64,000 bases of DNA from Eubacteriales bacterium (GTDB lineage Bacteria > Bacillota > Clostridia > Oscillospirales > CAG-272), in NCBI GenBank assembly GCA_045612865.1, contig JAZKZW010000082.1, forward strand, positions 5,135 to 69,134, in the 5' to 3' direction. Below, one piece after another: positions 45,678 through 52,403 of the stretch. A program made the translations under genes and the position numbers. Within the stretch, counting starts at the first letter, position 1. The number at the start of each line of letters is the position of its first letter. The notes under the pieces were generated by a model. The model was not told the DNA's origin. It worked only from the letters and a program-made list of their open reading frames with translations, and ran no database searches.

Positions 45678-45754
45678 TGGTCCGCAACCGAGGGATCGAA
45701 CCTCGAGCCTCCTGTTTGTAGGACAGGCGCGCTAACCATTTGCGCCAGTCGCGG
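45678..45754 (-). tRNA. tRNA-Val(UAC) with C33
   Basis: loop CCTACAA, acceptor CCGCGAC/GTTGCGG, encoded CCA. Confidence 0.5.
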
Positions 45755-45761
45755 ATTATTT

Positions 45762-45837
45762 TGGTGGAAGGTTCTGGAGTCGAACCAGAGTCTCTAGATT
45801 TTCAGTCTAGCACGCCAACCGTGTACGTCAACCTTCC
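45762..45837 (-). tRNA. tRNA-Phe(GAA)
   Basis: loop CTGAAAA, encoded CCA. Confidence 0.7.
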
Positions 45838-45843
45838 ATTAAT

Positions 45844-45927
45844 TGGTGTCGGCAAAAGGACTTGAACCTTCATGCATCTCTGCACTGCGACCTCAACGCA
45901 GCGTGTCTGCCATTCCACCATACCGAC
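45844..45927 (-). tRNA. tRNA-Leu(GAG), type II
   Basis: loop TTGAGGT, long variable arm, encoded CCA. Confidence 0.65.
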
Positions 45928-46053
45928 ATATGTACGAAAGAGAGGGTGGAGAATTTTCGCCAGCAAGAGGTATTCTCCAAACCTAAATAATTAAAATCAT
46001 AGTGCGCGATTAGCGGCTCACTGGCTGCCACTGGGCGCAGATAAAAACAAAAT

Positions 46054-46130
46054 TGGTCTGAATGAAGGGACTCGAACCCCCAGCCTCTAGATCCCAAATC
46101 TAGAGCTCTGCCAAATTGAGCTACATCCAG
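46054..46130 (-). tRNA. tRNA-Pro(UGG)
   Basis: loop TTTGGGA, encoded CCA. Confidence 0.65.
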
Positions 46131-47390
46131 ATATAGTTCCATAAGGTCGGAAACCGCGCCGCACATTTTTTCACCCACTAGCAGGGTCGCCATTTGCTCA
46201 ATGCGTAAATGTAGAGTGCGTCTGCAGACCGCGTTTACTGGGCGCGCTACCCCAGGTCTGCTCTACTCAGACCTGTTCTCGATGACGGGATTCGAACCCG
46301 TACCTTGTAGACTACCACTTATCGTACATCGAGATATTTAATGTCGCCCATAGGTCGGGGCATCGCCGCTCATTTTACTACCCTCTAGAAAGGTCGCCAT
46401 TTGCTCTATGCGATTCATACTTTGCGTGGTCCGCGTTACTAGCCCTTTCGGGTGCGTGCAAAGTTTATTTGTCCAGCTTTTGGATACGGTAAGCTGGAAC
46501 CGCGCCTTTTGTAGGGTTCGCGGATAAACCATCACCTACTACTAAGCCACTTTCATAAATCGCTCACTTCATCTTGGAGGAGCTATTCCAATGGATATTT
46601 GGCCCACCACTGCCTCTCGGATATAAGTCTCGCCGAGTACAACCAGCACTGTTTATATAGCGTCTGCCGCCTCGCTCTCTGCTTCACTTGTTGATAGGGT
46701 GAAACTTAGACTGAACGGGGTGTATTTCTACACCACGAAGTATTTCTACTTCTTGGATTGCCGCCCAGAGCTAATCAAGTTTCCAAGTATCAACACAGAT
46801 ATTTCCCATATGTGCTACCACCTTGTTTTGTGAAAACAAGGAAAACCAATAGGCTGTTCATCTAACTCCATTTACCACAGCTGCTTCGGGATGAATCGCT
46901 TTCCTCATCGTATTACCCAACTACGACTTTGGCTTCGTGGCACCTATTTAACTGAGGGTTTTTGTCACTTCCGCGCATTTCCATGAACTGTCCTTACCGC
47001 TAGGCTATTGCTCTAAGCCTTCCGACCCTCAACACTTGCGCTCTATGGCGGTTTTCTCCTATACCGCAAAACGACTCTGGGGACTTTATTTATCCTCGTT
47101 GCTCCAGACCTCGAGGCACACCCTTAGAGCGGGGTGGTGTTAGTTTAGGTTTAAAGTCTCGGATAACTAACAAATTAGACTTTGGCGACGGTGAGGCATT
47201 CCGACAGCCCGACCTCTAGTGTGACAGACTAGTGCTCTTCCCCTGAGCTACACCGCCATTTAGAAAGAGAAGTTTGGCTCAGCAGGTTCGCGACCTGAGG
47301 GGAAGTTTCCTGAATTAAGACTGACTAACTTGATGCCTGTTGATACGCATTTATCTAAACAGGTCTTATTCGTTAAAATCCAGTCACCAA
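46131..47390 (-). ncRNA. 1.26 kb ORF-free GC-richer region transcribed upstream of tRNA-Pro; contains a ~67 nt imperfect direct repeat and a 57 nt mini tRNA-like element
   Basis: no ORF >65 aa; repeat units around 46139-46205 and 46349-46412. Confidence 0.3.
46277..46333 (-). ncRNA. truncated tRNA-like element (7 bp acceptor stem + canonical T-arm, no anticodon arm)
   Basis: CTCGATG...TACGGGTTCGAATCCCGTCATCGAGA. Confidence 0.35.
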
Positions 47391-47990
47391 ATATGTAATT
47401 ATTTTTTATTATTTCTTTTCTTTAACATATATATTATATTATATTTTTTTATAAAAATCAATAAAATCCATTAGGTACAGAATAAATTTTCTTACTCCAC
47501 GCCTAGACACTGTGTTAATGTAGTTGGTCTGCGTAGCCACACCTGCATCCACGCCTCATTCCATCTATCCTGTGCCTAATTTCATTTACCCTTTATACGC
47601 GTTTCATTAATAGTCTAGCAGATACGGTCAATAGTCACCGCTTAATGGCGTATATAAAGTTATGTTGCTGCATCTTTTAACTCCCACTATTTTATCCCAG
47701 AGTTATCGTATCTGTAGAGTCATAACGCTATAATATTGTCTGATAGGTGTCAGCACCGTTGACAGATATATCATTTCACCGCAACAGAGAGTGTCGTCTT
47801 CTCAATATTATAGAAGCTACCAGAAGCCTTCAGCCATAGGAGCAGCTTCCCGTTTCGGTAGACTACAAGGATTTCGTCCACTTATAAGGCGCCAAGCGCT
47901 TATTGATCAGGCGCCTAACCTTACCTATATTCCGAGCGATAGCTATAGTTTTGTCTGTCCAATGTCAAGCGTCTATTCCGCTTTGTATAA

Positions 47991-48067
47991 TGGGGTAAGA
48001 GACGGGGTACGATCCCGCAACATCCGTAGTCACGGTGCGGCACTCTACCAATTGAGTTACTCTCACC
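47991..48067 (-). tRNA. tRNA-His(GUG) with G-1:C73, C33 and an ATCGTAC T-loop
   Basis: extra 5' G, acceptor GTGAGAG/CTCTTAC, loop CCGTGAC, encoded CCA. Confidence 0.5.
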
Positions 48068-48269
48068 ATAAATAATAGGGAAAGAAAGACCCACGCATTC
48101 CTTTACACTGACAAGTATTTTCATCACACAGCACTTAGCCGGTCATTCCCTGTGTGTATCTTCACCATCAACAACCCTATTGTATTAAGTACCACCCCCA
48201 ACCTTGTGTCCCATTACAGTTGGCAAGAGGATTTTCCGTGTTAGTGCATGATCTCAAAGGGACGCGCTC

Positions 48270-48343
48270 TGGAGCAATATGCGAGAGTTGAACTCGCGAC
48301 TGATGCATGGCAAGCACCTGTTTTACCACTAAACTAATACTGC
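48270..48343 (-). tRNA. tRNA-Gly(GCC)
   Basis: loop TTGCCAT, encoded CCA. Confidence 0.65.
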
Positions 48344-48702
48344 AAAGCATGATAGTCTTTCCTATCAGTCAACAAGTCTTGACTATACTTGCGGAATGGG
48401 TCACTCATTGTCGAGGCTGTTACCGCACCTAGCTCATTTGCGCCGTGCACTGCGCTTCCCGCATCAGCCCTAAGTTGCTGACCAGAATGGAAAGGGAAAT
48501 GAGTTGCCCTTTTGCTACTTTTTAGTCTTTTCGTAGACGCGGCTAATCATATCTTGTAGCAACCTTTCTACACGGCAAGGTCATGACTCCTTGCGACAAA
48601 TTTCAAAGCTCGCGACGAGTGTTTTAGCCTACTTAAACTACCCGTCCCCGGTTAGGAGACAGGAGTGGATTCGAACCACTATTTCTCTTAACTTTGAAAT
48701 TT

Positions 48703-50972: not shown

Positions 50973-51068
50973 TTTTTATTTCCTCTTTCCTTTTGATTAC
51001 ATATATATTTTATCATATTTTTTTATAAAAATCAATAAAGTATATGCAATTTAAAGTAATAAATAAAT

Positions 51069-51157
51069 GGTGGGAAGGGTGGGAATCGAACCCACTAAGC
51101 TCCTCGAAAGCAACGGTGTTACAGACCGCCCCAACTCTCCTACTTTGGCGCCTGCCC
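51069..51157 (-). tRNA. tRNA-Tyr(GUA)-like, probably defective (6 nt anticodon loop, C4-U69 mismatch)
   Basis: loop CTGTAC, type II variable arm, encoded CCA. Confidence 0.4.
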
Positions 51158-51234
51158 ATATAAATGGTCACGGTATTTTGTACGTCCGCCGCAACCAAGC
51201 GGGCTCAACTGTTTGTACACATGGCACATCAGCT

Positions 51235-51325
51235 TGGAGCGAAAGGCTGGATTCGAACCAGCGAATAGTGGAGTATTTAAAACCAGCTCCTAATGCTGGC
51301 GCCTTTACCTCTAGGCTACTTTCGC
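51235..51325 (-). tRNA. tRNA-Leu(UAG)-like with unstructured 20 nt variable region
   Basis: acceptor GCGAAAG/CTTTCGC, loop ATTAGGA, encoded CCA. Confidence 0.4.
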
Positions 51326-51328
51326 ATA

Positions 51329-51400
51329 TGGTGCCAAAACTTGGTGTCGATCCAAGCACCCGTAGTGTATGAAACCTCGGTGGACGCCGATCCTTTTGGC
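51329..51400 (-). ncRNA. 72 nt tRNA-like element (perfect 7 bp acceptor, T-arm with ATCGACA loop, CCA) with non-canonical body
   Basis: GCCAAAA...CTTGGATCGACACCAAGTTTTGGCACCA. Confidence 0.35.
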
Positions 51401-51848
51401 AAATTGCGTCCTCGCATCTTCCCCCGAGAACGGCTTTTCTGTTTTGGGTATAATACACTAAAGACTTGGTGGGGTTTATGTTTCACAACCACGCTTACGC
51501 TACTCAATTCGCACAAGGCTCTTACGACATCAACATATAGTTGGTCTGCTTGCAGGCGTAGGGCTTCCTCGCTTAATGCGTCATACGATACCTCACTTTA
51601 CCTCGCCTACCAAGTCGGGCGATATCACCTGACCCGTTTCAGTGTATATTGGGGTGGAATGGGTTGAGCGAACCCTTGCTATGCCAAGCTCTCCACGCGA
51701 ACTCCGCAGCCTGAGTCACCCACGGCTGCCTCTAGGGACTCGCTATTACGAGTTTACCTGTCTCAATCCTCGGACAGGAGAGAGGGGTCTTTGCTCACAC
51801 CGCCCGCTCAGTGTTTGCGACAATTTTCAAAAGGTCTGTCGCTGACCT

Positions 51849-51922
51849 TGGTTGCGCACGTAGGATTCGAACCTCGTCTCTAGCTTATGAGGCTAGTAAG
51901 CTACCTTTGCTCCACCAGCGCG
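51849..51922 (-). tRNA. tRNA(CAU) Met/Ile2-like, atypical acceptor and T-stem
   Basis: anticodon arm CTAGC-CTCATAA-GCTAG, ends GCAACCA. Confidence 0.4.
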
Positions 51923-52164
51923 ATACGGCAGGTGTTTCCAGCACACCTGAGCTTTATCCCAACTTCATATCAAGCCTCGATAAGTTGGCACGGGCACCTT
52001 GACATTTATCACGCGTACAAGGGAATACGTACGGGCGCTCCTTTCACAAGAGGTAATCAGTTTCGATGAACTGCGGGATTGACAATCCGTTAGAAGGAGT
52101 CCACTGATATTATCTTATACTCTTGCTAACCACTGCGCACTAATTATTGTGGTAGGTAGCTATC

Positions 52165-52239
52165 TGGTGAAGCTTAAGGGGATCGAACCCTTGCCTGAGC
52201 GCTGAGAACGCCCCGTTTTAGCCACTTAACTAAAGCTCC
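52165..52239 (-). tRNA. tRNA-Glu(CUC)
   Basis: loop TTCTCAG, encoded CCA. Confidence 0.6.
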
Positions 52240-52325
52240 ATAATGAATGATTATATTGCTGACAAACCAGCCCCCATCACTCACGGGCAATGTAGAAGAT
52301 TTATATCGCGCCTTACCTAAGCGCA

Positions 52326-52403
52326 TTGGTAGGGATACCGGGACTCGAACCCGGATCTCCAGCTTGAAGGGCTGGTGTCACTAGACCTATTAGACGATAC
52401 CCC
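52326..52403 (-). tRNA. tRNA-Glu(UUC) with C33
   Basis: D-arm like E. coli tRNA-Glu (TCGTCTA...GACACC), loop CCTTCAA, encoded CCA. Confidence 0.55.

Follow-up and report, generated by a model that had tools for sequence, protein, structure and literature searches.

Transfer RNAs with cytidine at position 33 in a phage tRNA array have counterparts in other arrays and in several bacterial lineages

Escape from nucleases has been proposed for phage transfer RNAs (tRNAs) from phage-encoded arrays whose anticodon loops depart from the consensus (PMC10264068), and PARIS AriB is defeated by anticodon stem-loop changes in the tRNA-Lys of phage T5 (PMC11464382). The first of these datasets itself holds Val tRNAs with cytidine at position 33 (C33), where the U-turn nucleotide is otherwise U, as well as T-loops with A54 and U58. 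In cluster C1 mycobacteriophages the Val(GAC) loop UCGACAC (144/161) and the Val(CAC) loop UCCACAC (142/161) both carry C33, one His allele in the same list does so too, and the T-loop AUCGUAA is found in Asp and Gly tRNAs (PMC10264068 supplement 1a). These Val loops were scored as unlike those of the host, and position 33 is absent from the main text of that paper. Refolding the C1 tRNAs with ARAGORN confirmed the C33 Val loops and the AUCGUAA T-loops. The eukaryotic cytoplasmic initiator tRNA-Met has a natural, functional C33 in many eukaryotes, as well as A54 (PMC5041475, PMC7566577, PMC7912444); a literature search for C33 in bacterial or phage tRNAs returned only this initiator, the Candida exceptions and mutational studies. 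Here we compare with these systems three tRNA genes, Val(UAC), Glu(UUC) and His(GUG), from a tRNA array on a 64,000-nucleotide (nt) stretch of a Eubacteriales bacterium assembly (GCA_045612865.1, contig JAZKZW010000082.1, positions 5,135 to 69,134), hereafter the window. An original prediction made from the letters alone had read C32-C33 in all three loops, presented this as a rare departure of phage tRNAs from universal U33 and linked it to evasion of host anticodon nucleases. We found the loops to be as predicted, and that Glu(UUC) and Val(UAC) normally carry C33 in several bacterial lineages, C33 also being routine across tRNA arrays.

Both ARAGORN and Infernal (family RF00005) placed C32-C33 in tRNA-Val(UAC) (45678..45754, minus strand; 58.3 bits), whose anticodon arm reads CCUGU-CCUACAA-ACAGG, and in tRNA-Glu(UUC) (52327..52404, minus strand; 55.6 bits), whose arm reads CCAGC-CCUUCAA-GCUGG. 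Each has an encoded CCA and a canonical T-loop (UUCGAUC in Val), with C1-G72 as the first pair of Val and G1.U72 as that of Glu. The third gene, tRNA-His(GUG) (47991..48067, minus strand), was overlooked by ARAGORN and by the default filters of Rfam; Infernal alone, with 45.2 bits where the gathering score is 29, resolved its anticodon arm as CCGCA-CCGUGAC-UACGG, with C33 and a C30.A40 mismatch. Its T-arm, GCGGG-AUCGUAC-CCCGU, carries A54 and U58, its CCA is encoded, and it has the G-1 opposite C73 expected of a tRNA-His (G-1 followed by GUGAGAG...CUCUUAC-C73-CCA). The neighboring tRNA-Ile(GAU) (48703..48778, minus strand; ARAGORN, and Infernal at 64.5 bits) combines a normal anticodon loop (CUGAUAA) and an encoded CCA with a U49.G65 pair and the T-loop UCCGAUC, which places C at position 55. 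The two T-loops singled out by the original prediction are therefore real, that of His by Infernal and that of Ile by both programs, and the coordinates given there were right for Val and His and one base off for Glu.

We took as a canonical cloverleaf an RF00005 score above 29 bits with stems of 7, 4, 5 and 5 base pairs and 7-nt anticodon and T loops. Val, Glu, His and Ile all scored above that threshold, and ARAGORN drew cloverleaves for Val, Glu and Ile. U33, which is conserved rather than strictly defining, is lacking in Val, Glu and His; T54-Psi55-C56 with A58 is found in Val and Glu, and in neither His (A54, U58) nor Ile (C55). A shift of the anticodon stem by one register, which could have restored U33, was rejected because ARAGORN and Infernal agree on 5-bp stems around 7-nt loops, the shifted register is unpaired, and the posterior probabilities across the anticodon arms were all maximal in the Infernal alignments. 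There is thus practically no chance that C33 is a mis-folding artefact, and the core observation stands. Unconstrained RNAfold of the isolated His sequence gave a minimum free energy structure other than a cloverleaf, which is usual for single tRNA sequences and hence uninformative. Judged by these features, Val, Glu and His appear to be genuine tRNAs, probably functional, with C in place of U as the U-turn nucleotide.

We looked for the same loops in cellular genomes by scanning species-representative genomes with CCTTCAA-N12-GGTTCGANTCC for Glu and metagenome contigs with CCTACAA-N12-13-GGTTCGANTCC for Val; all counts from these scans are among the matches listed. For Glu, 86 of 119 genome stretches were tRNA-Glu(UUC) with the loop CCUUCAA, and 64 of the 86 lay in sparse loci of at most four tRNAs. 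These sparse loci included four closed Dehalococcoidia chromosomes and many contigs of Acidobacteriota, Myxococcales, NC10, Saccharibacteria and Acidimicrobiales; the C33 gene often adjoined a normal tRNA-Lys, and one locus encodes a CCA-adding enzyme and DinG. The other tRNAs of the sparse Glu loci (n = 72) comprised 70 with U33, two with A33 and none with C33. For Val, 93 of 120 metagenome stretches were tRNA-Val(UAC) with CCUACAA, 72 in dense arrays and 21 in sparse loci, and several of the sparse genes had canonical bacterial Val bodies of the GGGCG... type beside ordinary bacterial genes, including a histidine kinase. In several bacterial lineages, then, Glu(UUC) and Val(UAC) normally have C33, and free-living bacteria live with it in their ordinary Glu or Val gene. 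The window Glu and Val belong to the same class: each is a canonical tRNA apart from its CCUUCAA or CCUACAA loop, which a 5-bp stem closes.

Phage and mobile-element arrays were assessed as well. ARAGORN called 566 distinct tRNAs in the window and 115 IMG/VR loci, which had been picked by protein similarity or by a T-arm pattern and hence were not selected on position 33. That position was U in 530, C in 24 (24/566, 4.2%), G in five and A in two. Much of this C33 fell to three specificities, Glu(UUC) (6/18), Val(UAC) (5/10) and Val(GAC) (2/4), together 13 of 32 genes as against 11 of 529 elsewhere (p = 8e-12), and the anticodon stems of the C33 Glu and Val genes differed widely. In arrays found by the collection scans, C33 occurred in 49 of the 301 remaining tRNAs of genome arrays and 103 of 963 tRNAs of metagenome arrays, including 5 of 31 His(GUG) genes. 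The rate was 11-17% in arrays already holding one C33 gene, and 4-17% over all array sets. Three C33 genes among the 27 tRNAs called in the window are thus unexpected by the standard of chromosomal tRNAs (0/72) and as expected for a tRNA array. Purines at position 33 were found in only 2/301 and 3/963 of these genome-array and metagenome-array tRNAs, and the ratio of C to purine departs from the 2:1 expected from transitions (p = 5e-15). The position is therefore constrained to a pyrimidine rather than free: it accepts C, not purines. A rule tying C33 to position 36, wobble base 34 or the modification class of position 37 was dropped, as the C36 excess of the first set was absent from the larger array sample. 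We also discarded counts at positions 8 and 14 taken from ARAGORN strings, where cellular loci too gave apparent deviations of 5-14%. Five of the 8-kb genome stretches, from contigs of metagenome-assembled genomes (MAGs) of Micromonosporaceae, Eremiobacterota and Planctomycetia, held 18-35 tRNAs with 6-9 C33 genes each, of many specificities; they may be prophage or mobile tRNA islands.

The individual histories of the three genes differ. The orthologue of the Glu gene in two related contigs (L002/L003) is 91% identical and keeps the loop CCUUCAA; its pairs 6:67 and 7:66 each show a double compensatory change, and pair 28:42 has gone from C-G to U.G. Two further loci (L012 and L055) have CCUUCAA Glu genes with other stems, and the contig closest by protein identity (L001/L004) has a different Glu of the U33 type. 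The exact Glu anticodon-arm pattern gave no match in IMG/VR, and matches appeared only with a relaxed pattern. Comparison of these orthologues suggests that the C33 loop of Glu is inherited within the phage clade. Its body had been predicted to be near-identical to E. coli tRNA-Glu, a likeness that did not survive alignment: the gene matches gltU at 42/78 positions (54%), the likeness lying only in the D-arm core and T-loop, and blastn of the gene against 5,426 E. coli genomes gave no match at E<=10. Against GenBank phages, blastn returned only FelixO1-like tRNA-Glu, 80% identical over part of the gene; the one FelixO1-like array that was fetched, from a Hafnia phage, has U33 throughout, Glu included. 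The window Val has no clear orthologue in the relatives, of which L001 and L055 hold another Val lineage with U33. The His gene is 72/77 (92%) identical to that of L005, which has the loop CUGUGAC and an intact CCGCA/UGCGG stem. All five differences are transitions: U33C, G40A, one at position 59 and two in the acceptor stem that leave G.U pairs. The 150-nt flanks are 48-49% identical, equal to shuffled sequence, which argues that the His gene as a whole is under purifying selection. At least Glu and His thus appear to be under purifying selection, and the C33 and stem mismatch of His look recent.

The unusual T-loops proved to have company as well. The T-arm pattern of His, GCGGGATCGTNCCCCGT, matched 101 IMG/VR stretches among the matches listed, about 85 of them inside tRNAs, whose specificities were many and included Gly, His, Asp, Glu, Met and Ala. 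This module, GCGGG-AUCGUNC-CCCGU with A54/U58, thus recurs in about 85 phage tRNAs across loci L015-L115; one Gly(UCC) gene that carries it is common to dozens of contigs, each about 130 kb long, from a single sample (3300045988). In the window and IMG/VR set, positions 54 and 58 were T/A in 470 tRNAs and A/T in 81, with any other combination in at most eight. Such strict covariation implies that the 54-58 tertiary pair is preserved with its partners swapped, and in His A54/U58 would be the swapped form of T54-A58, maintained by covariation. With the pattern-bearing genes removed, A54/U58 was still found in 34 of 430 further tRNAs of those phages; the clade of the window has it in 5 of 105 tRNAs, in addition to the window His. 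It was absent from the 72 cellular neighbors and present in 1/300 and 5/958 tRNAs of other arrays, among the matches listed. A54/A58 has been described in eukaryotic initiator and alanine tRNAs (PMC7566577, PMC7912444), and neither of these two papers describes A54/U58. The Ile homologue in L001 has the T-loop UUCGAUC; C55 occurs in 4 of 102 clade tRNAs and about 2% of array tRNAs, and in the window Ile it is a further tolerated deviation.

We consider it somewhat more probable than otherwise that C33 reflects tolerance or ancestry, and that the window genes are ordinary members of the C33 population of arrays and cells. Since C33 is normal in some bacterial Glu and Val genes and common in arrays, it is not by itself evidence of nuclease dodging, and no special anti-defence function would be required. 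Of the U-turn contacts of U33 listed by Grosjean and Westhof (PMC5041475), C33 would keep the ribose 2'-OH to base 35, the O2 to pyrimidine 36 and the stacking, and would lose only the hydrogen bond from N3-H to phosphate-36; with most contacts kept, normal decoding would be expected, perhaps at slightly lower efficiency. The three tRNAs would most likely read GAA, GUA and CAY as usual, and Glu and Val would thereby serve the commonest Glu and Val codons of the phage, in which 66% of Glu residues are encoded by GAA and 40% of Val residues by GUA, more than by any other Val codon. Several observations weigh against tolerance or ancestry. The frequencies from the collection scans are samples, not censuses; C33 is far commoner in arrays than in chromosomal neighbors; position 33 deviates in 5.6-5.9% of tRNAs in the unconditioned phage sets, as against 2-4% for the invariant G53, C56 and C61; and His may be impaired, with its C30.A40 mismatch and the second-lowest Infernal score in the region studied, where most tRNAs score 50-64 bits. 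Selection on C33 specific to arrays is possible.

Such selection could act through counter-defence, in which C33, and perhaps A54/U58 and C55, would make poor substrates for nucleases or toxins of hosts or competitors that read U33, T54 and Psi55, and the phage tRNAs would sustain translation after destruction of those of the host. The array excess and the high deviation at position 33 fit this proposal, as do the C1 Val loops scored as differing from the host's and the PARIS precedent, and the cleavage site of the toxin CdiA-CT EC536 lies precisely between positions 32 and 33 (PMC11724271). We nevertheless regard it as unlikely. Normal cellular genes have the very same Glu and Val loops; colicin E5 needs only a pyrimidine 5' of GU and leaves U33C variants of Tyr- and His-type loops fully sensitive (PMC1635277); gamma-toxin cuts a C33 Glu(UUC) loop with wild-type kinetics (PMC2275089); we identified no nuclease that requires U33, and found no report of Val as an anticodon-nuclease target in the literature examined. 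It is decidedly unlikely that these three features, C33, A54/U58 and C55, jointly define a class of tRNAs in phages and mobile elements that was selected to escape nucleases, toxins or modification enzymes keyed to U33, T54 and Psi55, a class that would explain both the array excess of variants and the pyrimidine-only substitution at position 33.

Decay, by which one or more genes, above all His, would be pseudo-tRNAs drifting while host tRNAs do the work, draws on the joint occurrence in His of C33, C30.A40 and an odd T-loop, on its low score and its omission by ARAGORN, on the U33 and intact stem of its closest homologue, and on the deviation of 1-4% seen at other invariant positions of phage tRNAs. 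On those signs His shows one mismatch and 45.2 bits, yet it is conserved amid randomized flanks and both acceptor changes stay paired, and C33 turns up again among His genes in the metagenome arrays. The stems of Val and Glu are unbroken and both genes score high, the loop of Glu has been kept alongside compensatory changes, and substitutions at position 33 are almost always to C rather than to purines, all of which makes decay very unlikely. Altered decoding has also to be weighed: a weakened U-turn and a looser loop could broaden wobble, for example letting Val(UAC) read all GUN, or shift the register. The phage has a single Val tRNA, and C33 seems commonest in some family-box decoders of arrays; against this, Glu(UUC) and His(GUG) read two-codon boxes, and in cellular organisms the same C33 Glu and Val genes seem to serve as ordinary decoders, so that we hold this explanation to be extremely unlikely. 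Tolerance or ancestry remains the reading that we prefer for the window genes.

The array that contains these genes spans 42354..54437 on the minus strand and comprises 24 ARAGORN genes plus His and Asp(GUC), which were called by Infernal only. Interspersed with them are a ROOL RNA, two nuclease ORFs (open reading frames) and conserved non-coding blocks. Eight near-identical sigma-70-like promoter elements lie on the array strand (TTGATT/TTGAAA-17-TATAAT, mostly with an extended -10 TG), at 53589, 53381, 51035, 47461, 45593, 45258, 43388 and 42258 (all minus strand), and the element recurs many times in related contigs. Because these elements split the array into sub-clusters, every C33 gene lies downstream of a plausible promoter, from which we infer expression. 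The predicted promoter at 53353..53381 (minus strand; TTGATT-17-TATAAT with TG) precedes a small ORF and the Glu(UUC) sub-cluster; that at 51007..51035 (minus strand; TTGATT-17-TAAAAT with TG) precedes two ORFs and then Leu-Ser-Ser-Ile-Gly-His; and that at 47433..47461 (minus strand; TTGATT-17-TATAAT) precedes the sub-cluster Asp...Pro-Leu-Phe-Val. An intrinsic-terminator-like hairpin with a T run (42331..42350, minus strand) follows directly after Cys, the last tRNA of the array.

Other tRNA-like features of the window also depart from the standard form. The Infernal-only tRNA-Asp(GUC) (47186-47257, minus strand; 43.8 bits) has an irregular, enlarged T-loop of the GUCGGAAU type. In a tRNA at 52677-52751 (minus strand; 45.3 bits) the anticodon loop is 8 nt long (AUAGUUAA), the stem is closed by an A.G pair and CCA is not encoded, and another tRNA with an 8-nt loop (AUUGGAAC) was seen at 13779-13869 of L002/L003. 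A non-canonical tRNA(CAU)-like gene at 51328-51400 (minus strand), called by neither ARAGORN nor Infernal in the window, has an A.A mismatch in the anticodon stem of the window copy; it is conserved in L002 (13702-13773), with a reduced D-arm, an extended anticodon stem and a T-loop, AUCGACA, like that of the eukaryotic initiator. Outside the array, at 22444-22519 (minus strand), lies an amber-suppressor tRNA with the anticodon CUA, labelled Pyl by ARAGORN. Its body resembles the tRNA-Gln of the phage, and its presence suggests that TAG may be recoded to Gln in part of the genome.

The full-length ROOL RNA (42702-43321, minus strand), between Thr(UGU) and Leu(UAG), scored 161.6 bits against a gathering score of 99.1, and the relative L004 is 78.8% identical to the window over the surrounding 42000-43454. 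Genes for an HNH endonuclease (49842-50480, minus strand) and a PD-(D/E)XK endonuclease (44404-44847, minus strand) are inserted among the tRNA genes. Relatively G+C-rich non-coding blocks occupy the spaces between tRNAs at 46348-46702, 47138-47465, 48193-48272, 48495-48913 and 49612-49749. They are 75-99% identical in relatives, two of them at 98-99% to L001, far above the adjoining tRNAs. These blocks gave no Rfam match at E<=1 and no thermodynamic folding signal (z 0 to +1.4), and treating TAG or TGA as sense codons opened no ORF in them. The stretch at 48590-48708 (minus strand) weakly resembles the bacterial Y-RNA-like family YrlA (22.8 bits, E = 0.46), well below the gathering score, and includes a tRNA-like T-arm (GUGGUUCGAAUCCAC).

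The window belongs to the genome of a huge phage, in which at least 26 tRNA genes form an array driven by the predicted promoters. It has a G+C content of 38.5%, its long ORFs lie nearly all on the minus strand, and among them are RecJ-like, DnaB-like, NAD-ligase and topoisomerase II genes, as is usual for large phages; the phage origin of the C33 tRNAs is indicated by these replication genes, the HNH gene, syntenic IMG/VR relatives and a protein like the major vault protein. This last protein, of 822 residues (30767-33235, minus strand), has major-vault-protein shoulder and repeat domains (PF11978, 9.7e-26), and its GenBank phage matches were only three records, at 40% identity, from huge uncultured phages of 462-735 kb. 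No GenBank phage matched 45000-53000 by megablast. Several IMG/VR contigs of about 135 kb have syntenic tRNA arrays with the same flanking proteins at 53-79% identity, the arrays being present in L001-L005 and L011. A 510-residue SPFH/flotillin-like protein (39756-41288, minus strand) is kept beside the array in relatives. Directly upstream of the array lies a 277-residue protein (55607-56440, minus strand) with a weak nucleotidyltransferase-domain match, syntenic in L001-L003 (10001-10810) at 60-65% identity and a candidate tRNA-end or tRNA-related enzyme. A 2.6-kb contig binned with an Acutalibacteraceae MAG (JAZQHA010000157.1) has a C33 Glu(UUC) resembling that of the window, a Leu(UAG) with A33, and a block that matches non-coding DNA of L002 at 82% identity; it probably derives from a related phage and hints weakly at Acutalibacteraceae as the host group.

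The C33 tRNAs of the window are thus typical array tRNAs that bear no special signature, and a false alarm is removed. C33 examples already stand in published phage tRNA tables and public bacterial genomes, to which the window adds members; what may be under-described is the pyrimidine constraint at position 33, the family-specific C33 of cellular Glu and Val genes, the 4-17% rate in arrays and the A54/U58 swap, which is widespread in phage tRNAs. Our survey suggests that "invariant U33" would be better stated as "pyrimidine 33" for some families, among them bacterial Glu(UUC) and Val and many phage-array specificities. If the excess in arrays is true counter-defence, it points to nucleases or toxins that read the most conserved nucleotides of tRNA; if it is tolerance, it sets limits on what the ribosome and the processing enzymes require. 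In either case, annotation pipelines that penalize C33 or T-loop variants under-call phage tRNAs, as did ARAGORN here for His and Asp.

Set beside the described systems, the window tRNAs resemble the phage tRNAs credited with nuclease escape in coming from a phage-encoded array with non-consensus anticodon loops, and differ from them in that their Glu and Val C33 loops are also cellular and in that U33C gave no protection in the assays with colicin E5 and gamma-toxin. With the cellular C33 Glu and Val genes they share identical 7-nt anticodon loops, canonical cloverleaves and a Glu-type D-arm core (UCGUCUA...GAC); they differ in being phage genes in a dense array with other acceptor and anticodon stems, including the G1.U72 of the window Glu, and we identified no direct donor lineage among the cellular C33 Glu and Val genes. 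The parallel with the eukaryotic initiator tRNA-Met extends to C33 and A54, but the initiator has A54/A58 with A60 where the window His pairs A54 with U58 in a swap, and the window tRNAs, whose anticodons are those of Val, Glu and His, are of the elongator type and come from a virus of bacteria. The closest likeness is to the tRNA arrays of phages and mobile elements, in which tens of tRNA genes lie on one strand within a few kb, deviations at invariant positions are frequent and C33 is common; from these the window array differs in nothing essential, its unusual extras being the ROOL RNA and the long conserved non-coding blocks.

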